Assembly: GCA_016188455.1 (NCBI GenBank)
Contig: JACPHR010000010.1
Span: forward strand, 3,655-67,654
Length of the DNA stretch: 64,000 bases
Origin: Candidatus Tayloriibacteriota bacterium
Lineage (GTDB): Bacteria > Patescibacteriota > Minisyncoccia > Phycocordibacterales > SIBU01
Direction: 5' to 3'
The position numbers and the translations under genes were made by a program. The notes beneath the pieces are model-generated. The model was not told the origin of the DNA. It did no database searches and saw nothing but the letters and a program-made list of their open reading frames with translations. This document shows positions 3,686-40,776 of this stretch, in pieces; the stretch's first letter is position 1; each line of letters opens with the position of its first letter.

Positions 3686-6600
3686 CTACCGCGCTGTGGA
3701 GCTATTCAGTTGCTTCTGAAGTTCTTGGACGCGCTTGATGGCCTCATCAATTTGTTTCTCCAAAGCTTCCCGCGCCGCTTTTGAAGCGCTGGAAGCTCCT
3801 GCTGAAGTTTCCACCGTGGCGGCGGGCGCACTGGCCGCGCTCATCGCTTTGAGTTGAGCCCGGGTTTTAGGACCAACATCACCATAGCCGCTGTCTCCCG
3901 GATTGGCAATACCATATTTCACTTGGAATCGGCCGACTGCCCTTTGAGTGGCCGGGCCGAAGAAGCCGGTGGCATCGCCTTCAGGGTACAGCTCTTTGTC
4001 TGCCGAAAGGAATATCTGCAAAGCTTTCACGTCATCCCCTCTGGCGCCGCGAACGAGGCCCCGAGTGATGTTCGGCGCGCCGGCGGAGACTCCGGACGAT
4101 GGTGTCGGAGCGGCAGGAGGGGCCGCCGGAACTTGAGCGTTTTCCTTGAAGACTTCATTAATCTTTGCCCGAGTGGCCGGACCGAGTTTGCCCGCGCCAG
4201 CCGACTTTTCACTCTTGATTACTCCGTGCTTTAGCTGAAAGGCCTTAAGCGCTTTTTCAGTCAGAGGACCAAAGAAACCGGTTTGTTCAACGGCTATGAG
4301 AGCCTGCAGACGTTTGACATCCTCCCCTCGGGCTCCACGGGTCAGGTCTTTATTGAAGACCGGGGAAACCAAGCGGGCGGTCGCGGATGCTTGCGCTACT
4401 GACGCCGCCGGTACGGTAACGGCCGCCGGCGCCGGGGTTGAGGTTTTAAACTTCTTGTCAAGCTCCGCTATCTTGGCCGCCGCGCCGACTTCGTCAAGAT
4501 AGACTACCGTACCGTCAGGATAAATCTTTTGGGCGCGTGGGGCAGGAGCGCCAGTACCGCCGCCTCCGCCGCCGCCAGGGGCGGCATTGCCGGCGTTGGC
4601 CGACACCGTGGCGCTCACCGCGCTTGAGGCGGCTGATTCTGAGGCGCCGCTAGATTTGTAAGCCGAAATCTTGTAGTAGTAGGTGGTGCCGGCCGTTACT
4701 GACGTATTGGAATAACTAAGAGTGCTGCCTCCCGATATGTTGGCGAGAAGGGGGAACGAGCCGGTAGAGCTGGTGTCTCTGTAGATGTAGTAACCCTCGG
4801 CGGTGGAAACCGTTCCCCATGAAAGCGCAATGGGGCTGCCGTCCGTCACTCCGGCAGTGGCCGTGAGGCCGCCGGGCGTATCGGGCGGCGAAACGCCGAC
4901 TTGAGACGACAGAGCGTAGGCCGAGAAGTGGGTGCCTTGGGCGGCAAAGGTTACGGATGAGACATTGGAAAGGTCGGCGGAGGGCGACGCCACGGCGGCA
5001 CCGGTGGAATCTTTATAGGTCGGCACGGTAGAAAGCGTTTCCCAGTCTCCCTTGTCGGCGCTGTACGACATTACGGTAAGCTTGTTGACTGCGGTTGTGC
5101 TGGTAATGCTGGAAGAAGTAAGTTCCGCCTTGGTGTAGGTCAATTCAATATCGGCTTTCTTGCCGGTCTGGAGGTTCGTCACCTGACTGCCGCCCGAGAA
5201 GGCGCTGATATCCTTGGCTTTGCTCCCGATAATGTTGACACTGGAGGTGTTCGGATAGTTGCTGGTTTCCTTGGCCGTGATATAAGAGCTGTTGCCTGAA
5301 GCGCCCAAGGCGTTGGCGTCAAGATTGACCTTGGTGTTGACGGAAGCGTCAGAAAACGAACCGGCAGAAGTGTCCGTGAAAGTATTTGAGGTAGCAAGCT
5401 TGGACGAAAGCGAGGATGCCGTCGTGAGCGCCACATTGATGCCGGTTTGGGAACTGTTAACGGTAACCGGATTGGAAGCGGAAGCTCCTTCCGCATAGCC
5501 GTCGGCGGCGGCAAAGACTCTCCAGTTGCCCGGAGTGACGTTTAAGGTATAGGCGCCGCTAGTATCAGTTTGGGTAATCGCCTGGCCGCCGCCGATTTTA
5601 CCGGCGCGGACGAAGGAATTGGCCGCCGCCACGCCTCCGGCCGTGACCGTGCCGGAAATCGTAAGCGAGGATGCCGTCATAATGAAGTTTTGAGTGGTGG
5701 TGCCTGAAACCGTCACCGTTACGGGTGAAGCGACGTATTGGGGTTTGGATACCAGTACTTGGTAGGTGCCGTTCACGGCCTTAATGCTGTAACCGCCGGT
5801 GGAAGTGGCCTGGGCGCCGAACTGCACGCCATTCGTCTGGTCAACGAACTGAATCCAAGCGCCGTCAAGTTCGTTGCCGGCCGTGGCCGCTGTTTTGTAG
5901 ACCGTGCCCGCAATGTTGCTCAAGGCCGCGCCGGTGGACGAAGTGTTGACGGTAATTTTGACCGCTTCGGTGGCATGGCTAACGGAGAGATTGCCGCTTG
6001 ATACGGTGGTCTGCGCGCCGTCTGAGGCCACGGAAATGTTTGCCGGCGGAATACCTTGAATGTAGGCCCGGATGGAAGGCGTGGTGCTTGAAGCGATTAA
6101 GAGCGAGGTGGTTGAAGCGTTGGTAATTTCAATGTGGTTGCCCAAGCCGGTGGTTTTGTCAAAGAGGTCAACGAAGGCCTTGGAGACGACCAGCGGGTTG
6201 CCGTCTGAGTCCTTGATGGTGAAGTTGACGGTGCTCCGAACCGGTACGCGGATGTACTGATTGGTTGATGAAGCGCTGAGGTCAATGGTACCGATAGCCG
6301 TACCCGCGCTGTTATACGCCGCAAGCCTGCCGTAGGACGGCGAGAAGATGTCTCTGATGGTATAGCCACTGGCGGATGGCACGCGGATGGAGAAGGCTCC
6401 GTCAGCGCCTGAAACGCCTTCGTTGACGCTGGTGCTGTTGGAAAGACGGATGACGGCGCCGACAATGGCCTCGGTGGTGGTGGCGTACTTGTTGTTGTCA
6501 TCCAAATCCTCGTAGATATTGCCAGAGTAAATACTGAAACTTTGACTGGAGGAGGGGGCGAAGTTGATACTGGACTGGCTCGCGCCGGCAATGGTGACAG

Positions 6601-9600
6601 TTTGCTCGGCCATCGGTCCGAAACCGGGGATAAACGAGTTGACTTTCCAGGTGGTTGGATTGGCCGCAGTTCCATCCACATAAAGCGTGTAGTTGCCGGT
6701 GGAAGAATCAGTCATGGCATCGGCGCGGCCCGGGCCGTCGGTGCGATAGGCGAAGACCGGCGCGTTGCCCACTGGGTTAGTGCCGTCCGTCACTTGGCCG
6801 GTGATGGTGTACCCCGGCTTGACCATTTTAAGGATGAAAGGATTGGCGCCGCTTGAACCGGTGGAGGCGGTCGGAGAACCGTCAATATAGAATACGTCAG
6901 TTCCGGATGAGTCCATGACTACCGTTACTTTTTTGGATTCGCCGATACCGGGCGAGTAAGCGCCAACCACATAGGAACCGGCCACCACTTTAATGGAGAA
7001 CGTTCCTGAAGTTGAAGTTTGGGTGTTGCCGCCCAAACCGCCGCCGCTATCCGTGTTGGGCGAGAAAGCGAAGACCATGGCGTTCGCTATGGAATTGCCG
7101 CTGCCGTCTTTGAGCACGCCGGAGATGGTTTTATTGGCGGTGGAAATCGTAAAGGTATTTGATGTGGTCGCGAAGCTGTTAACGCTTGATACGCAAGCGC
7201 TTGGACAGCCGGTTACCGTCACATTTATCGCTTTTGGCATAGACCAATTCGGCATGGGAGGCGGGCCACTGAAGCCGCCAGATGTGCCTTTCGGCATGGC
7301 GGGTCCGATACCGATGCCCCAGCTGCCGTTAAACTGCGGAATGGGAATGACGGTCAGAGTTGAAGCCGTCAGAGCCGAAGCGCCGGGCGTAACGGTGCGC
7401 ACCACGAATTGTCCGGGACCGCCGGCGAAGACGTCCACATTTTCGGTCGCCGTAAAGGTATTGGCCGCCGCGGTCAGCCTGACCGTGAAGTTAATGGCGG
7501 ACGAGGTCGCCGTCAGCGCAAAGTTCCTGGTGATGATGGAAGAAGAGGTAGCCTGCACCGGCGTGGGCATGGTGTTGCCGAAGAAGGCGGTGGTAGTAGC
7601 GCCATCGGCATCGCTTACCCCGCTTACAAACGGGTCAGTAAAGAGCATGTAGTGGCTGCCGCCGCCGAAATTGTTCGTCAGAAACTGCGAACCGACAGGC
7701 AGGTTGGAGAAGGTGAAGAGGCCGGTTGAGTCAGTGACGGCGTCAATCGGTCCGGTCTGGGGAGACATTAGGTGAATGGTCGCTCCCGTCAAGTTGCCGC
7801 CGTTGCCCGAAACTGTGCCTCGGATAGTGGTCACCGCTCCGCCGCCGGCCGCGCCGCCGCCGATGTAGATGGGATTGCCGCTGAACGACTCAAGAAGCGT
7901 GCCGTCCGATTTCTTTGATTTAATGTCAAGCACATAGCCGGAGCTGTCCATGCCTTTCGGAATGGAAGGATTGACCATGTCCGCGAGCGAGAATTTAAGG
8001 AAATCATGTTCATCGTTGCCGCTCTTCCTGGTGCCGGTAATGCCGGAACCGGTGGCCTTGAGCGTCAAGGTGATGGTCTTGGCAGTCGAGCTCGTCGCGA
8101 TAGCACTGATGCCGATAGTGCCGTCGCTTGAGCCGTTGATATCGCTGTTGACGGAGGCGAGGAAGGGATTCTTGGCAGAAGTGGTGGCGACGCAACAAAG
8201 GCCAAAGTCGGAACTGGAAGGGAGGGTAATCACGATGCTGCCGCCGTCGTCAATCTGTTTGGCAACCGGAAGCTCAAAGGAATAGGTGGAAGAGGCGCTG
8301 ATGAAGCTGGTAGAAGGCCTGATTGAGACGGGGGGCATGAAGCCGATGCCCGAAGCGCTGAAATCCTTAATCTCGCCGAAGGTGGTGCCGGTAAAGCTTC
8401 CGGGGCCCACAAATCCGCCGGTGCCGCCGGCACCGGTGGCCGAAGAAACGGTGCAGGAACCGCTCATGGGCGCCGTAGTCGTCAAGTTCCCCGACATGTC
8501 CTTAATGTTTGTCGCCGATACCGTAACGGCGGCGCCGGAGGTAAGGCGGAGCCCCGAGAGTTTGGCTGTGCGGGTGCTTTCATCATAAGTAAGAGTGTGT
8601 CCCGCCAGCGCCGAAAGCGTCTGGGCTACTCCGCCCACCGTCAAGGTGTAGTTGGCAAGGGTGGTAGCGTCGGTTTTATTAACTGCTTCGCTGAAAGTCA
8701 CAGCGACCGTGAACTCGTCGGCGTTGACAAAGAGGATGGCCGGCCCGCTGATATCGCTGTTGGCCGCCTCAACCGTCCATGACCTGGTGACATTCGCGGC
8801 CAGAGCCGTGCCGGAAATATTTTTGAGCGCGCCGCCTTTGAGAGTCAGAACTATCGTTTGGCCGACAGGCAGCACGTTGCTTGCCGTGAAGTGGCCCTCT
8901 TTGGAAACCGGGTCGTAGCGAACGCTGCCGGGAAGGTTGGCCCCGCCGGAAATGCCCAGAGTGACGGCTCCGGAGGTGGCCGTGGCTGAGTCAATGTTGT
9001 CGTCAAAGGTGAAGACAAAGTCGTTGGTGTTTGCCGCGATGGTCGTGCTTGGAGTCGGCAATACGCCCACAATCGTCGGTGCCGTGGCATCCGTGCTGCC
9101 GCCAGTGGTAAAGGTGGTGGTGTATGCCGTTGACAGGGCAATGCCCTGGAGAGTGCGCACGCCGGTCCCGACAGTGAGAGTGTATTGGGTGTTAGCGGCC
9201 ACAGTCCCGCGAATGCCCGCTGAAAGGATATTTTTGCCGGTTGAAGTGCTAAAACTGAAACTGCCAAGCGTCAGGCCACCGGAGAGAAAAATGTTGGTGT
9301 TGGTGAAGGTCGTGGTGTCCATCGTTGACTGGTTGAACTCAATCGTGGTGGTGCCTATATTAGTCGGCACATTCTGCGAGCCGCGGAAAGGCGAAGCTCC
9401 CATGACCGCCGGCGGCGTCACGTTGGCCGAGGTAAAACCGGCCGCGCCGGTGGTAAAGGTCGCGGTATAAGACTGACTGCCCGGCGTAAAGCCGTCTTGG
9501 TCCAAAGCGTTGCCGGATAGGTCATAGACGTTTGAAGTAACGGTGAAAGTGTAGGAAGTATTGGCCGACAGAGAAGCGGTCAGGTTGCATTTGGCGGACG

Positions 9601-11074
9601 GCTCAAAGTTTGAAGGGAAGGGATTGTAGGTAACGGTGGTGCAGAGATTCCCCGTGCTGTCAGCGGTTTTTCGCAACACAACGGTCGTTGTCGCAGTTGA
9701 CGTATTCAACCAAATAATAGTGGTAGTGGAAACCGACTTGTTGAAACCAAAACCTAAAAAGGTCATGTCAATCGGCGCGTTGGTCATGCCGTTGCCCGGA
9801 AACGAGCCTTGCACTTGAAGGGTTGAAATGTCCGTGCCGCCGCCGCCGAAAGGAAACTCATGGGGACTGAAACTGTTCTGGGGATTAGCCGTTGTTTGCG
9901 CCACGAATTCGGTTTTGTTGAAATTCTTGTCAAAGCCGTTGCCTTTTGTGGAATCAACGCCGCCCGTGGCCATTGAGGCGGCAGTGGAGGTGGCAGAGGG
10001 ATAACCTGTTGCAAGACGCTCCAGCGATGAACCGTCTTCAGCGAGAGCGGTGGCGCACGGCGTAGAACTTGCCTCTCCGTTCTCGCAATTGCCAGTCTTT
10101 TGCGCTCCCCAGCCGACATAATCAATGGCCGTTGAAGTGGCGAAGGTGCCTAAACTGCTTGTGGCAATGGATACGCCGCCGTCCGCCAGGATAATGTTGA
10201 AACTGGAAGTGGCAAAGACCGCGTCAAGCGGCACCGAACCGCCGTAGCCGATCTGATTACCAATGAGAAAATAACCATACGACGGGATGACTTTTCTGTA
10301 ATAGGTCAGAGGTATGCCGGGCGTTGAACTGCCGGTGGTATAAAAGGAATGGAGCTGAAGACCTAAGTCGGAGAGGTTAATGTCCGCCTCGCCGGAGTTG
10401 TAAAGCTCCACGAACTCATCGCTGGCGTTCACGGCTGTACCCGACTTGACTTCGCTGATTTTAACCGTGGCGTTTTGATTGAGAGTAACTTTTTTATTTG
10501 AGGCCAGGGCCGTACCGACGACGCTCCCCCCAGCCGTGGTTGAAGCATAGCCCGTCTGGAGTTGCGCGTTGAACGCGTGGCCGTTGGTAATACCGGTTGT
10601 ACCAGTGGTGGATGCCACTAGATAGAAAGTGGTAGGGCTACTGCCAATACTTTCCGCGGTCGTCGGCGTAAGAACAATGAGAGTACTGTTCACAAGCGGG
10701 GTAGTAGAAGCCGCGCCAGCGATAAACGTATCGCTATCAAGCTGAAAACCAGGCTGGCCACCCGCCTCTTTCCAGAGCGAAACGCGAGATATCTCCCCTT
10801 GGGACATGGTGGTTGAAGCGACGATCTGGACTCCCACTTTGCTCAGGGTGTCATTGCCAGTAGACTGGACTAGTTGAAAGTTAAGCAGTGGAATAATCGC
10901 GCCGCCGCCAATGGTGGTAGACGCAAAGAAAGCATCCGTAGGCGGCGCCACTTCGGTAATGGCGGCCGAAGCGGTGGAAGCGCCGAGCGCCAAAAGCAAA
11001 GCGGCAGACAGAAAAATACACGCCTTAAGAGCGTGCTTTCTAACTCGCGACCCCAACCTAAAAGCTCTTGCCAT
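3686..11074 (-). CDS. giant secreted surface protein (lamin-tail domain, Ig-like/Big_5 repeats, carboxypeptidase-regulatory-like repeats, FN3, two C-terminal peptidoglycan-binding domains)
   Basis: signal peptide; KISEV..DEFVELYN; FN3 LSW..GYYIYR..TYYYKISAY; two L.RGARG.DVK.LQ..TGFFGP.T..A...FQ repeats; start uncertain (11074 or 11113). Confidence 0.8.
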   Translation of the reverse strand: MARAFRLGSRVRKHALKACIFLSAALLLALGASTASAAITEVAPPTDAFFASTTIGGGAIIPLLNFQLVQSTGNDTLSKVGVQIVASTTMSQGEISRVSLWKEAGGQPGFQLDSDTFIAGAASTTPLVNSTLIVLTPTTAESIGSSPTTFYLVASTTGTTGITNGHAFNAQLQTGYASTTAGGSVVGTALASNKKVTLNQNATVKISEVKSGTAVNASDEFVELYNSGEADINLSDLGLQLHSFYTTGSSTPGIPLTYYRKVIPSYGYFLIGNQIGYGGSVPLDAVFATSSFNIILADGGVSIATSSLGTFATSTAIDYVGWGAQKTGNCENGEASSTPCATALAEDGSSLERLATGYPSATSTAASMATGGVDSTKGNGFDKNFNKTEFVAQTTANPQNSFSPHEFPFGGGGTDISTLQVQGSFPGNGMTNAPIDMTFLGFGFNKSVSTTTIIWLNTSTATTTVVLRKTADSTGNLCTTVTYNPFPSNFEPSAKCNLTASLSANTSYTFTVTSNVYDLSGNALDQDGFTPGSQSYTATFTTGAAGFTSANVTPPAVMGASPFRGSQNVPTNIGTTTIEFNQSTMDTTTFTNTNIFLSGGLTLGSFSFSTSTGKNILSAGIRGTVAANTQYTLTVGTGVRTLQGIALSTAYTTTFTTGGSTDATAPTIVGVLPTPSTTIAANTNDFVFTFDDNIDSATATSGAVTLGISGGANLPGSVRYDPVSKEGHFTASNVLPVGQTIVLTLKGGALKNISGTALAANVTRSWTVEAANSDISGPAILFVNADEFTVAVTFSEAVNKTDATTLANYTLTVGGVAQTLSALAGHTLTYDESTRTAKLSGLRLTSGAAVTVSATNIKDMSGNLTTTAPMSGSCTVSSATGAGGTGGFVGPGSFTGTTFGEIKDFSASGIGFMPPVSIRPSTSFISASSTYSFELPVAKQIDDGGSIVITLPSSSDFGLCCVATTSAKNPFLASVNSDINGSSDGTIGISAIATSSTAKTITLTLKATGSGITGTRKSGNDEHDFLKFSLADMVNPSIPKGMDSSGYVLDIKSKKSDGTLLESFSGNPIYIGGGAAGGGAVTTIRGTVSGNGGNLTGATIHLMSPQTGPIDAVTDSTGLFTFSNLPVGSQFLTNNFGGGSHYMLFTDPFVSGVSDADGATTTAFFGNTMPTPVQATSSSIITRNFALTATSSAINFTVRLTAAANTFTATENVDVFAGGPGQFVVRTVTPGASALTASTLTVIPIPQFNGSWGIGIGPAMPKGTSGGFSGPPPMPNWSMPKAINVTVTGCPSACVSSVNSFATTSNTFTISTANKTISGVLKDGSGNSIANAMVFAFSPNTDSGGGLGGNTQTSTSGTFSIKVVAGSYVVGAYSPGIGESKKVTVVMDSSGTDVFYIDGSPTASTGSSGANPFILKMVKPGYTITGQVTDGTNPVGNAPVFAYRTDGPGRADAMTDSSTGNYTLYVDGTAANPTTWKVNSFIPGFGPMAEQTVTIAGASQSSINFAPSSSQSFSIYSGNIYEDLDDNNKYATTTEAIVGAVIRLSNSTSVNEGVSGADGAFSIRVPSASGYTIRDIFSPSYGRLAAYNSAGTAIGTIDLSASSTNQYIRVPVRSTVNFTIKDSDGNPLVVSKAFVDLFDKTTGLGNHIEITNASTTSLLIASSTTPSIRAYIQGIPPANISVASDGAQTTVSSGNLSVSHATEAVKITVNTSSTGAALSNIAGTVYKTAATAGNELDGAWIQFVDQTNGVQFGAQATSTGGYSIKAVNGTYQVLVSKPQYVASPVTVTVSGTTTQNFIMTASSLTISGTVTAGGVAAANSFVRAGKIGGGQAITQTDTSGAYTLNVTPGNWRVFAAADGYAEGASASNPVTVNSSQTGINVALTTASSLSSKLATSNTFTDTSAGSFSDASVNTKVNLDANALGASGNSSYITAKETSNYPNTSSVNIIGSKAKDISAFSGGSQVTNLQTGKKADIELTYTKAELTSSSITSTTAVNKLTVMSYSADKGDWETLSTVPTYKDSTGAAVASPSADLSNVSSVTFAAQGTHFSAYALSSQVGVSPPDTPGGLTATAGVTDGSPIALSWGTVSTAEGYYIYRDTSSTGSFPLLANISGGSTLSYSNTSVTAGTTYYYKISAYKSSGASESAASSAVSATVSANAGNAAPGGGGGGGTGAPAPRAQKIYPDGTVVYLDEVGAAAKIAELDKKFKTSTPAPAAVTVPAASVAQASATARLVSPVFNKDLTRGARGEDVKRLQALIAVEQTGFFGPLTEKALKAFQLKHGVIKSEKSAGAGKLGPATRAKINEVFKENAQVPAAPPAAPTPSSGVSAGAPNITRGLVRGARGDDVKALQIFLSADKELYPEGDATGFFGPATQRAVGRFQVKYGIANPGDSGYGDVGPKTRAQLKAMSAASAPAATVETSAGASSASKAAREALEKQIDEAIKRVQELQKQLNSSTAR

Positions 11075-11294
11075 TAAAATGCTCCCGGACCCGACATTGG
11101 AAATGAAAATCATTTTATAAAAAATTAAAATTATAATTCAAATAGAACCGAACGCTCTTTCTTCGACAAGAAAGAACGCGCGGTGAGAAAAATCTCACAA
11201 TGTGCCACTATATTATAAAACTTAGTCCGCCATAACTAAAGGGATGAGTGTGGATAACCCCGCAGCAGGTTTTCCTGTCGTTTTGATCACTCAA

Positions 11295-14220: not shown

Positions 14221-14292
14221 AAGACTTCCTTTGGGTTGATTGTGATTGGTACAAGCAAAAACCGTACATATGGTATAAAATGGATGAGAAAA

Positions 14293-15171
14293 ATGCAAAA
14301 AGTCCAAACGTCAAGTATCAGAAAACTTGACAGAAAAGATTTTCCCAGACGGCTTTTGGAAATACCCGACTGTCCTGAGAAATTATACATCCGAGGGCAA
14401 TTGCCGCCGGAGGAATATAAGTGGCTCTGCGTGGTCGGCTCGCGAAAGTATTCCGAATACGGCAGGCAGGCGGTGAAAAAAATGATTGGCGGCTTGCGCG
14501 GCTACCCCGTAGTTATCGTCTCTGGGCTGGCGCTTGGCATTGATTCAATCGCTCATCGCGCTGCTTTGGAGGCAGGCTTGCTTACTGTCGCCGTACCTGG
14601 CTCGGGTCTTGACCTAAAAGTTTTATATCCGGCGAGCCACCAGCAACTGGCGGAAAAAATCGTGGCCGCCGGCGGGGCGCTCCTCTCTGAGTTTGAACCG
14701 GCTTTCCAAGCCACGGCCTACAGCTTTCCCCAAAGAAATCGCATCATGGCCGGTCTCTCGGACGCGGCGCTCATCGCGGAAGCGGAACTGAAATCGGGCA
14801 CGCTTATCACTGCCAAATTCGCCGCCGATTACAACCGCGACGTCCTGACAATTCCCGGCTCAATCTTTTCGCAAACCGCCGCCGGACCCCACATGCTCAT
14901 CCGCCTGGGCGCCGCGCCCATTACCTCAAGCGCGGAACTTTTGGACGCTCTCGGTTTTGAACTAAAAACTAAAAACTCACAACTAACAACTGCTTATAAC
15001 GATTGTTCCCCAGATGAACTGAAAATCATCGCGCTTCTTCAAACGCCCCTGCCCCGCGACGAACTTATCCGGGCCATCGGCATGAATGCTCGAGACGCCA
15101 ACATTCTCCTCTCAATGATGGAGCTGAAGGGATTGATTAAAGAAATGATGGGAGAAATTCACTTGGTGTGA
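14293..15171 (+). CDS. dprA: DNA-processing protein DprA
   Basis: VVGSRK, VSGLALGID, FPQRNRIMAGLS, SGTLITA; start approximate. Confidence 0.95.
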   Translation: MQKVQTSSIRKLDRKDFPRRLLEIPDCPEKLYIRGQLPPEEYKWLCVVGSRKYSEYGRQAVKKMIGGLRGYPVVIVSGLALGIDSIAHRAALEAGLLTVAVPGSGLDLKVLYPASHQQLAEKIVAAGGALLSEFEPAFQATAYSFPQRNRIMAGLSDAALIAEAELKSGTLITAKFAADYNRDVLTIPGSIFSQTAAGPHMLIRLGAAPITSSAELLDALGFELKTKNSQLTTAYNDCSPDELKIIALLQTPLPRDELIRAIGMNARDANILLSMMELKGLIKEMMGEIHLV

Positions 15172-16412: not shown

Positions 16413-18683
16413 ATGAAATTATTGATCGTTGAATCGCCGGCGAAGGCGAAAACCATTTCAAAATATCTGGACGGCCTGCCTGCGCCTGCCGGCGCGAAAG
16501 CAGGCGGGCAGGCGGGCCGGTACATCGTCAAGGCTTCCGTCGGCCATGTCCGCGACCTGCCAAAGAGCAATAAAAACGCCATTGACATTGAGGGCGGCTT
16601 TGTGCCCCATTACGAAATTTCCAAAGGCAAGGAAAAGGTGGTCTCTGAGATAGAGGCTTTGGCCAGGAAGGCGGACACCGTGCTCTTGGCCACCGACCCC
16701 GACCGCGAGGGCGAGGCCATTGCTTGGCACTTATCCGAGCTTATAAAGGATAAGCTCGGAGAATCACGAATCAAGAATCACGAATCAAGAAGACCGATAC
16801 AGAGGGTGGTGTACCATGAAATAACGAGGGAGGCCATAAAAGAGGCTTTGGAGCATCCGCGAGACATTGACGAAAACTTGCGGCGCGCTCAGGAGGCGCG
16901 GCGGGTTTTAGACCGTCTCGTCGGCTACGACCTCTCCGGCCTGATTTGGAAAAAAGTGCGCTACGGCTTGTCCGCCGGCCGGGTTCAGTCTCCGGCTCTG
17001 CGCATTTTGGTGGAACGGGAGCGGGAAATTCGCGCCTTTAAGCCGGAAAAATTTTTCGTCATCAGCGCGGAAGTGGAAAGCAAAACCGGCGGTCGGTTCA
17101 TGCTTTTCTGCGTGGCAGAACCGCGCGACAAAGGGCTGGTGGAAAAAATCCTGGCGGCGGGCCGGCGCGAAGATTGGGTCGTTAAAGAGATTGCCGAAAC
17201 CGAAGCCAAGCGAACGCCGAAGGCGCCTTTCATCACCTCCACTCTCCAGCAAACCGCGAGCTCGCGGCTGGGATTCGCCCCCTCGCGCACCATGGGCATC
17301 GCCCAAAAACTTTACGAAGCGGGACTGATTACCTACATGCGCACCGACAGCACCACTTTGTCCGCCCACGCCCTGGCCCAAATCGGCCCGGCCATTCTGA
17401 AAAAATTCGGCGCCGGCCTCCACCAAAACCGGGTCTTCGCCAAAAAAAGCAAGAACGCCCAGGAAGCCCACGAAGCCATCCGCCCGACCAATCTTTCTCT
17501 GGAATCCGCCGGCGCGGGAAACGAGGCCCGCAAGCTCTACCGTTTGATTTGGCAGAGGACAATCGCCAGCCAAATGATTGACGCCAAAATTTTACGAAGC
17601 AAGATTACTGTCAGGGTCGGCACGGGCCCCTCGCCTGCGCTCGGGGCAAGCGAAATTCCGGACTTTGCCGTGGGCGGCTCGCGGTTGCTTTCCCCCGGCT
17701 GGCTCTTGGCCGACCCCGAAGCGCGGGGCGAGGATGTTGAACTGCCGAAAGTTTCCTTGAACGAAAAACTAACGCTCCTTCAACTGAAAACGGAAGAAAA
17801 AGCGACGGAGCCGCCGCCGCGCTACAGCGAAGCGGGTCTGGTCAAAGAGCTTGAGAAGCGCGGCATTGGCAGGCCCTCAACCTACGCCTCCATCCTCAAA
17901 ACCATTGAAGACCGGGGCTACGTGACCAAAGAAAACAAAGCCTTGAAACCGACGGATACCGGCGAAGTGGTCAGCGGCTTTCTGGAAGACAATTTTCCGA
18001 CTTACATTAGCGACAATTTTACCGCGGAGATGGAAGACAAACTTGACGATATCGCCGTAGGAGCGCGTCAGTACGAAAAAACTCTTGAGGAATTTTATAA
18101 ACCCTTCCATAAGGAAGTAAAAGCCAAGGAAAAGGCGGAAAAAGCCACCAACCTTGGAGAAGGCCCGAAAGAATTTTCCTGTCCGGTCTGCGACGGGCCC
18201 ATGATTATAAAACTCGGCAGGAGTGGAAGATTTTTAAGCTGCGCCAAATTCCCCGATTGCTTGGGCGCCCGCGCCATTGACGGCAAGGAACTTGAAGGGC
18301 CGAAAGAAACCGGCGAACTCTGTCCGGAATGTAAAACCGGCAAACTGGTTGAGCGCGACGGCAAGTTTGGCCGCTTTATCGCCTGCTCCAATTATCCGAA
18401 ATGCAAATATGTCAAGAAAGACGAGGCGCTGGAAAAGCAAAACTCAACCGGTGTCCTCTGCCCCGTCTGCAAGGAAGGCTTCATGACCGAGCGCCGCGGC
18501 CGATTCGGCCTTTTTTACAGCTGTTCCAACTATCCCAAATGCAAAAACGCCATCAAAGCCAAACCGACCGGAGCGCTCTGCCGCCTCTGCGGCGCGCTGA
18601 TGATGGAAGGCACGAAAACCATCCCCGAAAGATGCAGTAATAAAACTTGTGCCAACCATAACCCCCACAAACTCGCGAAGTAA
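16413..18683 (+). CDS. topA: DNA topoisomerase I with C-terminal Zn ribbons
   Basis: IVESPAKAKTI, ATDPDREGEAI, SAGRVQS, ITYMRTDS. Confidence 0.98.
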   Translation: MKLLIVESPAKAKTISKYLDGLPAPAGAKAGGQAGRYIVKASVGHVRDLPKSNKNAIDIEGGFVPHYEISKGKEKVVSEIEALARKADTVLLATDPDREGEAIAWHLSELIKDKLGESRIKNHESRRPIQRVVYHEITREAIKEALEHPRDIDENLRRAQEARRVLDRLVGYDLSGLIWKKVRYGLSAGRVQSPALRILVEREREIRAFKPEKFFVISAEVESKTGGRFMLFCVAEPRDKGLVEKILAAGRREDWVVKEIAETEAKRTPKAPFITSTLQQTASSRLGFAPSRTMGIAQKLYEAGLITYMRTDSTTLSAHALAQIGPAILKKFGAGLHQNRVFAKKSKNAQEAHEAIRPTNLSLESAGAGNEARKLYRLIWQRTIASQMIDAKILRSKITVRVGTGPSPALGASEIPDFAVGGSRLLSPGWLLADPEARGEDVELPKVSLNEKLTLLQLKTEEKATEPPPRYSEAGLVKELEKRGIGRPSTYASILKTIEDRGYVTKENKALKPTDTGEVVSGFLEDNFPTYISDNFTAEMEDKLDDIAVGARQYEKTLEEFYKPFHKEVKAKEKAEKATNLGEGPKEFSCPVCDGPMIIKLGRSGRFLSCAKFPDCLGARAIDGKELEGPKETGELCPECKTGKLVERDGKFGRFIACSNYPKCKYVKKDEALEKQNSTGVLCPVCKEGFMTERRGRFGLFYSCSNYPKCKNAIKAKPTGALCRLCGALMMEGTKTIPERCSNKTCANHNPHKLAK

Positions 18684-18817
18684 ATTTGGGAGCACGCAAC
18701 CTGCGTTGCGTGCGCAAGGGGTTTTCGTGAGGCGGAGTCATGTTTCGTCAGCGGACGAAACGGACGAGCCGGGGTCGCGAAAAATCCTGCTCGACGGAGC
18801 AGGGTTTATTTGTGACC
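18684..18817 (+). mobile_element. ~135-bp guide-bearing structured element, topA copy
   Basis: hairpin 18692-18713, GGTTTTCGTG (reverse complement of topA 18611-18620), CGGAG..CGAG, GGGTCGCGA..GACG..TGTGACC. Confidence 0.75.
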
Positions 18818-18887
18818 GAAGACGATTCCCGAACGTTGCTCCAACAAAACATGCGCAATGCACAACCCTCATAAACTCGCGAAGTAA
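18817..18887 (+). pseudogene. displaced duplicate of the topA 3' end (71 bp)
   Basis: encodes KTIPERCSNKTCAMHNPHKLAK* versus topA KTIPERCSNKTCANHNPHKLAK*. Confidence 0.9.
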
Positions 18888-18951
18888 TGAAAAAGCGTGG
18901 AGCCTGCTAATGAAGCCCCTTGCCCGAGATATCCCGTTGCAGTAGCATATA

Positions 18952-20460
18952 ATGAATATGGCAACCGTCAAAGACATCACCGACCTGATGCAAAATCCCT
19001 CGGCAGAGGACCTGACCGTCATCGCCAAAGCCTACGATTTCGCCGAGAAAGCCCATGCTGGTCAGCGGCGCGTTTCGGGAGAACCCTACTTCCTCCACCT
19101 CGTTGAAACGGCCAAAACTCTGGCCGAGCTCGGCATGGGTACCATGACTATTTCCGCCGGCCTGCTCCACGATTCAATTGAAGACGTAAACGTCAAACCG
19201 GAAAGCATTGAACGGGAGTTCGGCAAAGAAATCCGCTTTCTGGTGGAAGGGGTGACCAAACTGGGCAAACTTCACTACAGTGGTGCGGAACGTTATACCG
19301 AGAGTCTCCGCAAACTCTGCGTGGCCATGTCTAAAGACGTTCGGGTGCTGATTATCAAGCTGGCGGACCGGCTTCAGAACATGAAAACCCTTGAGGTGTT
19401 GCCGAAGGAAAAACGCGAACGCATCGCTTTGGAAACTCTGGAAATTTACGCCCCCTTGGCCTACCGCCTCGGCATCCGAAAGTTCAACCGTGAGTTGGAA
19501 GACCTGGCTTTTCCCCACGTGCATCCGGTCGAACACCGCAAAGTCAAAGAGTTGCTTAAAACAAAAAGCCGCGAGAAAGCGCGCCGTCTGGAAAAATTCC
19601 ACAAAGGAGTTTTGCGCCAGCTGGCCCGCGGAGGCGTCACCGAAATTCAGACCGGCTACCGGCTCAAAGGCTTATACAGCCTCTATCGCAAGCTCTTGAG
19701 AAAAAATTGGGACATTGAAAAAATCTACGACATTTCCGCTCTGAGGATTATCGTACCGACCGTTGGCGATTGCTATCGGGTGCTCGGTTTGATTCACAAC
19801 GTTTGGCGGCCGCTACCCGGCCGCATCAAAGACTACATCGCCTTCCCCAAGCCGAACAATTACCGGGGCATTCACACGACGATTTTTACCGGCGACGGCG
19901 GCATCATTGAAGTCCAAATCAGAACCCAGGAGATGCACCGGAAAACCGAGTACGGCATGCACTTTGAATACAAAGAAACCGCGGGCAATCCGAAACCGAA
20001 TTTCGCCGGCATTGAGTGGGTAAAGCGGTTCTTCCCGGCGTTCATACTCGGCAACAGGGAAATAAAAGAGGGGCAAAAAAATCCCGAGAGGACGCCGTCG
20101 TGGATTCAGGAGCTGGGCGAATACAACAAAGAGGTTTCGGGCGCCGAAGAGTTTGTTGAGGACGTCAAAAGCGATTTTTTCAGCGACAGGGTTTTCGTTT
20201 TTACGCCTAAAGGCGACGTGATTGATTTACCGACAGACTCAAGCCCTGTTGATTTTGCCTATGCCATTCACTCTGATATAGGCAATCACATGTCGGGAGC
20301 GAAGGTTAACGGCAAACTGGCGGCCCTGGAAACCAAGCTTCAAAATGGCGACATCGTGGAAATAGTGACCAAACCACCCGCTCGTCCAAGCCGAAAATGG
20401 CTGGCAATAACCAAAACCACCTTGGCCAAAAAACACATCAAGGCGGCGCTGGAAACGTAG
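18952..20460 (+). CDS. relA: RelA/SpoT homolog (HD + synthetase + TGS, no ACT domain)
   Basis: HAGQRRVSGEPY, LLHDSIED, KLADRLQNM, KDYIAFPKPNNY, VFTPKGD TGS. Confidence 0.93.
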   Translation: MNMATVKDITDLMQNPSAEDLTVIAKAYDFAEKAHAGQRRVSGEPYFLHLVETAKTLAELGMGTMTISAGLLHDSIEDVNVKPESIEREFGKEIRFLVEGVTKLGKLHYSGAERYTESLRKLCVAMSKDVRVLIIKLADRLQNMKTLEVLPKEKRERIALETLEIYAPLAYRLGIRKFNRELEDLAFPHVHPVEHRKVKELLKTKSREKARRLEKFHKGVLRQLARGGVTEIQTGYRLKGLYSLYRKLLRKNWDIEKIYDISALRIIVPTVGDCYRVLGLIHNVWRPLPGRIKDYIAFPKPNNYRGIHTTIFTGDGGIIEVQIRTQEMHRKTEYGMHFEYKETAGNPKPNFAGIEWVKRFFPAFILGNREIKEGQKNPERTPSWIQELGEYNKEVSGAEEFVEDVKSDFFSDRVFVFTPKGDVIDLPTDSSPVDFAYAIHSDIGNHMSGAKVNGKLAALETKLQNGDIVEIVTKPPARPSRKWLAITKTTLAKKHIKAALET

Positions 20461-23992: not shown

Positions 23993-24154
23993 GGCGGGAG
24001 CTGGAGGAATCGGTCACAACTCTCGTTCTCCCGTCGGAGAACTCGGTCGCGACCCCGCCTCGTTCTCGCTCGGAACTCGCGAGATACTCCGGCTTCCGCT
24101 TCCTCTCGCGACCCAAGCAGTTGGCTCGCTCAACTCCCCATTCGGCCGCACTCA
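23993..24154 (-). mobile_element. guide-bearing structured element, tRNA-Trp copy, plus 21-bp duplicate of the tRNA 3' end
   Basis: 23993-24013 = 24156-24176; ACTGCT loop, CGGAG, GGGGTCGCGA..GACG..TGTGACC on the minus strand. Confidence 0.75.
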
Positions 24155-28296: not shown

Positions 28297-28442
28297 GAGG
28301 CCACGGTGGGACTTGGTTACAGCTCTCGTCGCGCCGTCGCGCTCCTCGGCCGCGACCCCGCCTCGCTGCCGCTCTGAAACTCGCGGCGTGCTCCGGCTTG
28401 CAATTCCACACGCACGCAAAGCAGTTTGCGTGCTCGTCGCCT
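28297..28442 (-). mobile_element. guide-bearing structured element, tRNA-Cys copy, plus 19-bp duplicate of the tRNA 3' end
   Basis: 28297-28315 = 28445-28463; GCACGCAA-ACTGCT-TTGCGTGC, CGGAG, GGGGTCGCG..GACG..TGTAACC. Confidence 0.75.
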
Positions 28443-39647: not shown

Positions 39648-39783
39648 ATTGAGCGAAGCGAAATTTTCAGTCGGAGCCCCGATGGGTATCGGGGCGTGAG
39701 GGATTCGAAAAGGTTCTCCCCTATCGAGTCCGCGAGATGGGAAACCTGTACTGAAGCGGTACGCTTCGAATCCTGCCCGACGC
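39648..39783 (+). mobile_element. tRNA-Tyr-linked structured mini-element with 19-bp 3'-end duplication
   Basis: 39765-39783 = 39625-39643; internal GGGATTCGAA antisense to the junction. Confidence 0.6.
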
Positions 39784-40197: not shown

Positions 40198-40270
40198 GCG
40201 CCCATAGCTCAGTTGGTAGAGCAATCGCCTCTTAAGCGAAAGGTCGTTGGTTCGAATCCAACTGGGCGCA
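40198..40270 (+). tRNA. tRNA-Lys(CTT)
   Basis: GCGCCCA/TGGGCGC acceptor, TCGC-CTCTTAA-GCGA, GTTGG-TTCGAAT-CCAAC. Confidence 0.92.
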
Positions 40271-40673
40271 CACGCCAGAAAAATCTTCACTGCTGAAGAT
40301 TTTTCTGGACGTGCGCGGGACGGAGGCATGTTCGGTCAGCAGACCGAACAGCCGAGTCCGGGTCGGGAAATTTTACTCGTGACGACGAGTAAAATATTCC
40401 TGACCACACGCCAGAAAAATCTTCACTGCTGAAGATTTTTCTGGACGTGCGCGAGGCGGAGCCGTGTTTCTGTAGCAACAGAAACAGACGAGCCAGGGTC
40501 GTGAAAATTTTTGAGCGACGGCGAAAAAATTATTTCTGACCACGGCCAGAAAAATCCGCACTGCTGGAGATTTTTCGGGACTTGCGCGGGACGGAGGTAT
40601 GTTTTGTCAGCGGACAAAACAACCGAGTCGGGGTCGCGAGTTCCGAGCCCGATGGGGTGAGGAAACTTGTGAC
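40269..40673 (+). mobile_element. tandem array of three guide-bearing elements (136, 136, 133 bp)
   Basis: units 40269-40404, 40405-40540, 40541-40673, each CAC..ACTGCT..CGGAG..GGGTCG..TGAC. Confidence 0.8.
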
Positions 40674-40776
40674 CACAAGAAAAATAAAACTTAGTAACTT
40701 GTGACTCTAAAATCCAACTAAATTAGAAATTCAAACTTTGAGTCGCGGGTGAATCCAACTGGGCTTTTTGAAAGAC

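Follow-up and report, generated by a model that had tools for sequence, protein, structure and literature searches.

A gene-less folded element with a putative carried gene tail and a putative base-pairing guide at the 3′ end of topA in a Candidatus Tayloriibacteriota bacterium

The window analysed here is a 64,000-nucleotide stretch of DNA (contig JACPHR010000010.1, positions 3,655 to 67,654 of the forward strand) from a Candidatus Tayloriibacteriota bacterium with a genome size of 893 kb. It contains topA (16413..18683, + strand), which encodes a type IA topoisomerase of 756 aa with Pfam Toprim, Topoisom_bac, and Zn ribbon domains. The gene is the target of a short element, which likely replaced the last 22 topA codons with its own version. 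The putative mobile unit (18613..18816, +) measures 204 bp and is composed of a gene tail and a body, as suggested by a period of 204, the unit sizes, and tandem arrays. It has neither an integrase gene nor cargo. We assign a probability of about one half to the reading that this unit is a gene-less folded element excised and integrated as single-stranded DNA, with a guide directing the process, a geometry like that of IS608, and a predicted enzyme acting in trans.

Two copies of the topA end flank the body. The in-gene tail (18613..18683, +) comprises 22 codons and the stop codon and probably arrived with the element; in-gene tails are linked to element bodies. The downstream tail (18817..18887, +) would be the displaced resident topA end, a polarity taken from relatives. 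It is preceded by a 133-bp spacer, ends with its own stop codon, and is followed just beyond by relA/spoT (18952..20460, +), which is the usual neighbour 3′ of topA and lies outside the element. Direct alignment bears out what had been read from the sequence alone: both tails are 71 bp long and differ at 17 positions, 15 of them in synonymous codons and two in a single Asn/Met codon, leaving 21 of 22 residues identical. Random placement of 17 substitutions produced at least five amino-acid changes in 20,000 of 20,000 trials, compared with the one observed. Across 79 pairs of intact tails, 657 synonymous and 107 non-synonymous codon differences were counted, and six pairs have no synonymous difference. 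Hence, the earlier claim that both copies evolved as functional topA ends, and not by slippage, holds. One study, which is possibly the source of this DNA itself, has four samples (runs X1, X2, X3, and X4) whose contigs span the region with 0 differences. A second study is represented by one sample (X5 and X6), and its contigs cover ca. 18815–18997 with 0 differences and do not span the insert. The same tail-element-tail junction is present in more than 100 other genomes. A chimeric assembly of two strains, the caveat attached to the sequence-only reading, is not borne out, because contigs from four samples span the region without a difference.

The end of topA is a recurrent target. The counts from the junction-pattern scan and the metagenome body scan are lower bounds. 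In the genome collection, the junction pattern gave at least 119 rows, which comprise 99 with the in-gene topA site upstream, three topA tails with a short flank, and 17 unrelated rows. Their record titles are mostly of Patescibacteria groups; three topA-bearing rows are titled Bdellovibrionales, and several have no title beyond "bacterium". With genus searches added, the set has at least 227 distinct topA ends: 112 are filled, eight hold the guide only, 99 are empty, and eight are too short. Presence of the element is patchy inside genera. In a same-order sample free of the pattern bias, eight of 29 other topA ends have the body and a second tail start. The topA unit measures 190–209 bp in 78 of 106 cases, and the distance from guide to junction is 95–99 nt in 83 of 106. 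No kilobase topA unit was found; the 106 measured units are all shorter than 340 bp, and none longer than 370 bp was seen. The downstream tail is intact over 19 codons at 79 of 98 loci and failed the intactness test at the other 19, a ratio inflated by the requirement of the junction pattern for five intact downstream codons; in eight cases unbiased by the pattern, about half of the downstream tails are shortened. In 69 of the 79 intact pairs, the downstream-tail protein is nearer to its own in-gene partner (17.6/19) than to other loci (15.9), which argues that tails move among related hosts. The sequence-only reading had called the carried tail foreign. Its arrival with the element is retained, but the donors are related hosts and not arbitrary foreign lineages, and some tails are mosaic. 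A conserved motif ca. 70 nt or less from the stop codon may suffice to explain why topA is among the few protein targets. The unpublished genome G125 supports no claim made here.

Two further arrangements were seen at topA ends. A second kind of insert lies further inside the same tail, at about the Arg-Cys-Ser-Asn codons, in L057, L150, L134, L079, and L187, and leaves a partial tail copy. The remnant tail of L187 agrees with the empty relative L162 and its flank; L187 was dropped as a clean example of polarity, as its insertion proved to be at this second site deeper in the tail. In L012 (genome G050), the topA tail is doubled with synonymous differences around a 146-nt spacer having no element body.

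The body contains a segment that covaries with the in-gene site. This guide segment (18720..18729, +) is the exact reverse complement of the left junction (18611..18620, +; positions −2 to +8), matching at ten of ten positions, and matches the right junction at only six of ten; tRNA-type copies of the element have matching guides too. The exchange point, placed where the two tail copies begin to match, would be 18612/18613, within the Thr codon of GTKTIPERC. Covariation was evaluated at 94 of 99 loci: five loci without an anchor were dropped, four visibly mis-anchored rows were kept, and positions −1 and +1 are fixed by the anchor. Among the matches listed, the guide agrees with the in-gene tail over the downstream tail at +2 in 36 versus 2 of 41 informative loci, at +5 in 36 versus 1 of 37, and at +8 in 32 versus 8 of 55. 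These three are third-codon positions. At −2, which is outside the duplicated part, the guide matches in 86 of 94 of the listed loci, compared with 46.8 expected. None of the 120 sites that are filled or bear the guide has an A at −2, compared with 14 of the 99 empty sites; kin among these sites are not independent. The bodies of L053 and L080 are otherwise 94% identical, and the guide has switched along with the in-gene base. The guides of downstream tandem units retain the original −2/−1 bases, not those of their present neighbours. In tRNA-type copies, the guide bases at −1/−2 read TT, TC, TG, or CG by target type (assigned partly by eye), and a guide variant puts GA opposite GA in seven T-loop copies. 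At +2 of the downstream tails, C is found in 7 of 112 cases versus 25 of 99 empty sites, and T and G are enriched. As judged from these alignments, the guide covariation is direct comparative evidence of a putatively programmable base-pair targeting, and the 10-base segment likely works as a built-in, reprogrammable guide for the predicted trans-acting enzyme.

The spacer folds into three hairpins with a z of −5.9. Hairpin 1 (18692..18713, +) has a 9-bp stem and a CTGC loop, and is variable, shortened, or absent in some relatives. P2 (18731..18770, +) is an imperfect hairpin with an AGCR loop and an internal purine loop that probably forms tandem G·A pairs. P3 (18773..18817, +) has the outer stem GGTCGCG/TGTGAC|C with two G·T wobbles and one bulged A, which is at least 90% conserved, and it encloses the right junction 18816/18817. 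Changes on both sides of a pair occur in 22 of 29 pairs of the body fold. P3 closes at 86–94 of 99 loci on the sense strand and at 39–72 on the opposite strand, and the G·T and G·A features of the modelled fold favour the sense strand as the folding strand. At the topA locus of the window, DNA parameters are favoured (P1 ca. 0.7 versus 0.05 with RNA parameters). Three longer topA units (L091, L107, and L116) have an extra module between P2 and P3. The ends of this module resemble the tRNA-Tyr/Glu/Ile-type inserts of this genome (window 39648–39770), and it is apparently a sister element nested in the body.

The body is also found behind tRNA genes, with 14 covariance-model matches in this genome. 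By a strict script test, 16 of the 46 tRNA/tmRNA genes of this genome bear the element. The same body thus stands at topA, tRNAs, and tmRNA, as the sequence-only reading had proposed for a protein gene besides tRNAs. Within the window, three tandem members lie behind tRNA-Lys (40269..40676, +; 3′-end sublocation), and single members with approximate ends lie behind tRNA-Trp (24006..24154, −; T-loop sublocation) and tRNA-Cys (28309..28442, −; T-loop sublocation), the T-loop and 3′-end classes of tRNA-type copies being those we take to apply. Within the order, the covariance model matches 52 of 61 genomes, with as many as 39 copies in one genome; among other genomes of the phylum, it matches six of 140. 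The metagenome body matches listed, at least 120, comprise 70 at tRNAs, two at tmRNA, three at topA, 25 unassigned (many resembling tRNA/tmRNA fragments), and 20 unparsed. None of these matches, as parsed, has a cargo gene. No Rfam family was matched at gathering score, the best E within 18560–18950 was 7.5, and a literature search, mostly of open-access papers, gave no description of the element. One further member, G000:C29:25473–25570, has a guide that matches a short end of the CCCACCA type, and no tRNA was called upstream of this end. The viral sequence collection gave one match, L158:2900–3400, where tRNA-type elements stand in tandem next to a tRNA-end remnant at an apparent provirus edge. 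They adjoin host genes not resembling those of Patescibacteria, which suggests that the family extends past the phylum.

Comparison with relatives bears on which tail is the resident one. In the closest filled/empty pair, L341 (filled) and L340 (empty), TopA is 97% identical upstream. The downstream tail of L341 differs from L340 at 3 of 59 nt and has the same 3′ flank, whereas the in-gene tail has 21 differences; over the first 45 bases, before a 1-nt deletion, the differences number 1 and 15, respectively. The in-gene tail and the hairpin of L341 resemble those of the element-bearing L339. A one-base deletion relative to L339, either real or an assembly error, shifts the last codons of this in-gene tail. 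Among 20 filled loci with an empty relative of at least 85%, the nearer tail is the downstream one in 11, the in-gene one in six, and neither in three. The C-terminal extension is identical to that of the empty relative for four downstream tails and for no in-gene tail. In the 24 closest element pairs, which are not independent of each other, the distance between in-gene tails over +1–9 is 0.11 versus a background of 0.19, while downstream tails are at background (0.20 versus 0.21). The in-gene tails of these pairs are below background in all five segments, and the downstream +1–20 is not. Two in-gene ends of one genus, KKGLSIE and HKLMK, are found solely with the element, and KKGLSIE runs into hairpin 1. 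Of the three informative tandem arrays, two favour a unit made up of tail and body. Mantel-type correlations and the GC content of third codon positions are uninformative on polarity (r of the latter 0.47 in-gene and 0.48 downstream), and the correlation with upstream divergence is weak (0.07 in-gene and 0.14 downstream). The polarity given by the sequence-only reading, in which the downstream tail is the resident one, is very probably right, with later mosaicism. Its further expectation, that the downstream tail groups with the host lineage and the in-gene tail with element-bearing donors, is borne out by L341 with L340 and L339, but in this genome both tails have 14 differences from the nearest empty relative, itself distant. 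The displacement of the resident tail is thus backed by the L341/L340 pair and the four-to-none C-terminal matches, and not by the locus of the window itself.

In the mechanism that we propose, the mobile form of the unit would be a circle of single-stranded DNA, and the predicted trans-acting enzyme would cut and rejoin the strand at both junctions. On the sense strand, the duplex spanning the left junction would be formed by the guide, at the foot of P2, and the one spanning the right junction by the foot of P3. A strand swap would then rejoin the gene to the downstream tail and set free the circle, whose two free guide bases (−1 and −2) would read the next target. Insertion at GGCA|C would install the element’s tail in the gene and push the resident tail downstream. 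With a changed guide and carried gene end, the same body could be retargeted to tRNA T-loops, tRNA 3′ ends, tmRNA, and topA.

Several enzyme families were surveyed as candidates. Y1 genes occur in 39 of the 61 genomes of the order, and at least eight element-rich genomes are without PF01797, although metagenome-assembled genomes may be incomplete. Reverse transcriptase (RT) genes occur in 24 of 61, and none is found in G040 (39 copies of the element), G002, G057, G034, G011, or G003. Several element-rich genomes without Y1 or RT genes are near-complete. IS110 was absent where sought (PF02371 in 0 of 1 genome, G000; PF01548 in 0 of 5 element-rich genomes), with positive controls in six of 14. 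The tyrosine recombinase family PF00589 has one XerD-like gene in this genome and is present in 57 of 61 genomes of the order. A serine recombinase is found in four of five element-rich genomes, and IS91 Y2 in none of five, the control likewise being without any match. This genome (L032–L038) encodes four Y1 proteins of ca. 230 aa, presumably RAYT-like, which are flanked by their own palindromes or repeats unlike the element. It also encodes three reverse transcriptases, each beside an open reading frame (ORF) of ca. 120 aa, which we take to be of the diversity-generating retroelement (DGR) type.

The element was compared with known systems that replace gene ends or read their targets by base pairing. 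In E. coli, e14 in icd/icdC is accompanied by a 165-bp duplication with 12 nt changes and two aa changes (PMC11148124, excerpt). The element resembles e14 in that a gene end is duplicated across it with mostly silent differences and an intact frame. Unlike e14, a multi-kilobase prophage with an integrase gene, it is 204 bp long and gene-less, its body is common to tRNA targets, and it has an internal covarying guide. Islander islands show a restored gene with a displaced 3′ fragment, tRNA/tmRNA targets, and tandem arrays; by definition they require a tyrosine integrase, and they are kilobases long (PMC4383910, excerpt). The restored target gene and the displaced 3′ fragment on the far side are shared with such islands, but no integrase lies within the unit, and one body serves many different targets. 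The likeness to attP/attB integration at miniature scale, drawn by the sequence-only reading, therefore extends to the outcome; no integrase is carried, and specificity apparently comes from the internal guide, which that reading had missed. In IS608, the guides GL/GR pair with the cleavage sites CL/CR, and C is favoured at +1 (PMC5934647, excerpt; further IS200/IS605 sources, PMC3201880 and PMC5027513, excerpts). As in IS608, an imperfect hairpin has at its 5′ foot a guide that is predicted to pair with the left site, where cleavage would occur, a second segment would pair across a hairpin with the right site, and one strand would be used. Different from IS608, the element has no TnpA, and Y1 genes do not co-occur with it. 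CTX phage has a folded single-strand attachment site that is used by an enzyme in trans (PMC3089051, excerpt). The predicted fold of the element is comparable with this site and with those of integrative mobile elements exploiting Xer (IMEX) and of attC cassettes. However, the targets are topA, tRNA, and tmRNA instead of dif or attI, and specificity changes along with the guide. Neither an XerC/D-arm consensus nor GTTRRRY, such as those of IMEX and integrons, was seen on comparison by eye, and G000 has a lone tyrosine recombinase. The arrays follow the logic of attC-cassette arrays, newest first, and the inverted partner matches the unit’s own start. Bridge RNAs of IS110 and group I/II introns use base-pairing guides to set a target or a splice site, and DGRs rewrite gene ends. 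Unlike IS110/IS1111, the element is not accompanied by a DEDD recombinase gene in G000 and five element-rich genomes, and unlike group I/II introns or known ribozymes, it has no Rfam match. It also differs from the template and variable repeats of DGRs in that the tail differences are not adenine-specific (A in-gene at 5 of 17 and downstream at 2 of 17), and the RT genes are on other contigs. The element thus appears to lack a defining feature of each compared system, and its putative novelty rests on the architecture together with these mismatches.

Several results weigh against the guide-directed single-strand reading. Y1/HUH genes (PF01797) are absent from the element-rich genomes G003, G011, G034, G049, G053, and G055 and present in the element-free G013 and G016. 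No recurrent enzyme was found in the 79 flanking ORFs scanned (of 120 listed). Six runs were searched at the contig level and gave neither a circle nor an empty-site joint, contigs being apt to drop rare forms. Across 99 loci, folding shows no preference for DNA (P1 above 0.5 in 67 with DNA and in 71 with RNA parameters). No strand bias of the kind expected for the lagging-strand template was seen: local skew is positive in 12 of 16 versus 22 of 30 tDNAs (p = 1), with skew confounded with gene direction. The guide of ca. 10 nt spans the junction (−2 to +8), whereas IS608 guides are 4 nt long and end at the cut, the target of 4–5 nt being entirely on its 5′ side. The carried gene tail, which lies between the left junction and the guide, results in the 71-bp target duplication, and IS608-type insertion makes none. 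As to polarity, the tally of 11 versus 6 of 20 is modest, and it is the in-gene copy that is favoured in L080/L413, the second-closest pair (5 versus 9). The tandem arrays are mixed, the second guide fitting the preceding tail in L111 and L095 and the following tail in L058. The nearest-empty-relative test on distant genomes is null (21 versus 25 for protein and 22 versus 20 for DNA, n = 46).

Other explanations were weighed on the same data. It is possible, albeit unlikely, that the same unit, with the same polarity, is processed as a folded single strand by the one XerD-like tyrosine recombinase of the host, in the manner of CTX phage or attC; the main role of the guide would then be to provide the second strand of a duplex recombinase arm. 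PF00589 in this genome and in 57 of 61 means that a recombinase is always available, the bulged A of P3 is conserved, T-loop and 3′-end tRNA targets are typical of tyrosine integrases (PMC4383910, excerpt), and CTX provides a precedent (PMC3089051, excerpt). Yet a nearly universal gene does not discriminate, and inspection by eye reveals no dif-like or attC consensus. Because the target-side arm is wholly different among topA, T-loop, and 3′-end targets, base pairing fits better than recognition by a protein. We consider it rather improbable that the element is spliced from or reverse-spliced into topA mRNA or pre-tRNA and fixed in DNA by reverse transcription. The folding strand is the sense strand, with G·U and tandem G·A pairs, every assigned target is transcribed in this orientation, RNA parameters yield P1 and P3 at least equally well, and splicing would account for selection on the downstream tail. 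Nevertheless, RT genes are present in only 24 of 61 genomes and missing from several element-rich ones including G040, no Rfam family matches, the core is only ca. 90 nt, and RNA-type loops are rare (no cUNCGg and three GNRA among 321 body hairpins). Downstream tails are often shortened (19 of 98 failed, and ca. half of the eight unbiased cases) and therefore not needed, which counts against splicing.

The unit could also be the collapsed scar of a larger integrase-bearing island, with the guide match as a by-product of an inverted att arm or of quasi-palindrome conversion. The outcome is identical to that of e14 in icd (PMC11148124, excerpt), and the guide switch in the 94% identical bodies of L053 and L080 would fit conversion. 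Such a scar is nonetheless improbable given the tightly conserved size (95–99 nt from guide to junction in 83 of 106), the lack of topA units longer than 370 bp and of cargo genes, and a single body that serves many targets and reaches 39 copies in one genome. Moreover, the downstream tandem guides keep the original −2/−1 bases, and conversion leaves the absence of A at −2 unexplained. Very improbable is the reverse polarity, with a resident in-gene tail, a guide that reads the recipient fully, and a downstream tail brought by the element, or else with an exchange point deeper in the tail. It would explain the −2 match directly. L080/L413 and five other pairs of the 20 favour the in-gene copy, the +2 base spectrum of downstream tails is unlike that of empty sites, and the in-gene tails of L087/L180 and L109/L120 have diverged in their 5′ part, with the 3′ part and the body near-identical. 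Against it stand the L341/L340 pair, the exact C-terminal matches to empty relatives (four downstream versus none in-gene), and the lack of a link between downstream +1–20 and the body. A carried tail that never coded would also lack the 657:107 synonymous bias. An exchange point after +2 was rejected on the tRNA copies, in which +2 is identical in 31 of 33. Slippage duplication or chimeric assembly has a negligible probability. Local tandem amplification is known in G004, L108, L255, and L256, and the six pairs without synonymous differences would suit it, but the synonymous bias is far past chance, the spanning contigs show no differences, and the same junction recurs in more than 100 genomes. 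For this locus, both are refuted, short of raw-read mapping.

On the guide-directed reading, the element may tentatively be placed in a natural class of self-guided, gene-less elements of ca. 200 nt, with a conserved 90-nt core, a swappable guide of ca. 10 nt, a carried gene end, and chemistry supplied by a housekeeping host enzyme or by the nucleic acid itself, and not by a known transposase or integrase. If so, rewriting the guide would retarget the element, and the ends of essential genes (tRNA, tmRNA, and topA) would be seamlessly replaced. To our knowledge, gene-end replacers use an integrase that reads the site as a protein, and DNA-guided transposons read 4–5 bases and make no duplication. 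Here, one small body reaches many conserved gene ends, with the guide changing base for base with silent codon positions. The topA copies reveal this covariation more cleanly than tRNA copies can. The presence of the element in 52 of 61 genomes of the order implies that the C-terminus of an essential enzyme is shuffled among related hosts. New from this locus are the guide covariation with silent codon positions, the target selection at −2, and the filled/empty pair; the novelty would lessen if Y1 or a Xer enzyme proves to do the work. The mechanism can be tested in vitro on a substrate of 300 nt.

Aside from the element, dprA (14236–15171) lies just upstream of topA, and natural transformation via dprA could be a conceivable travel route for single-stranded units. 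The topA gene itself holds short in-frame palindromic or repeat inserts at 16475–16520, 16760–16790, and ca. 17620–17655 (LPAPAGAKAGGQAG; ESRIKNHESR; GPSPALGAS). Elsewhere in the window, an ORF of 2475 aa occupies 3686–11113 on the minus strand.

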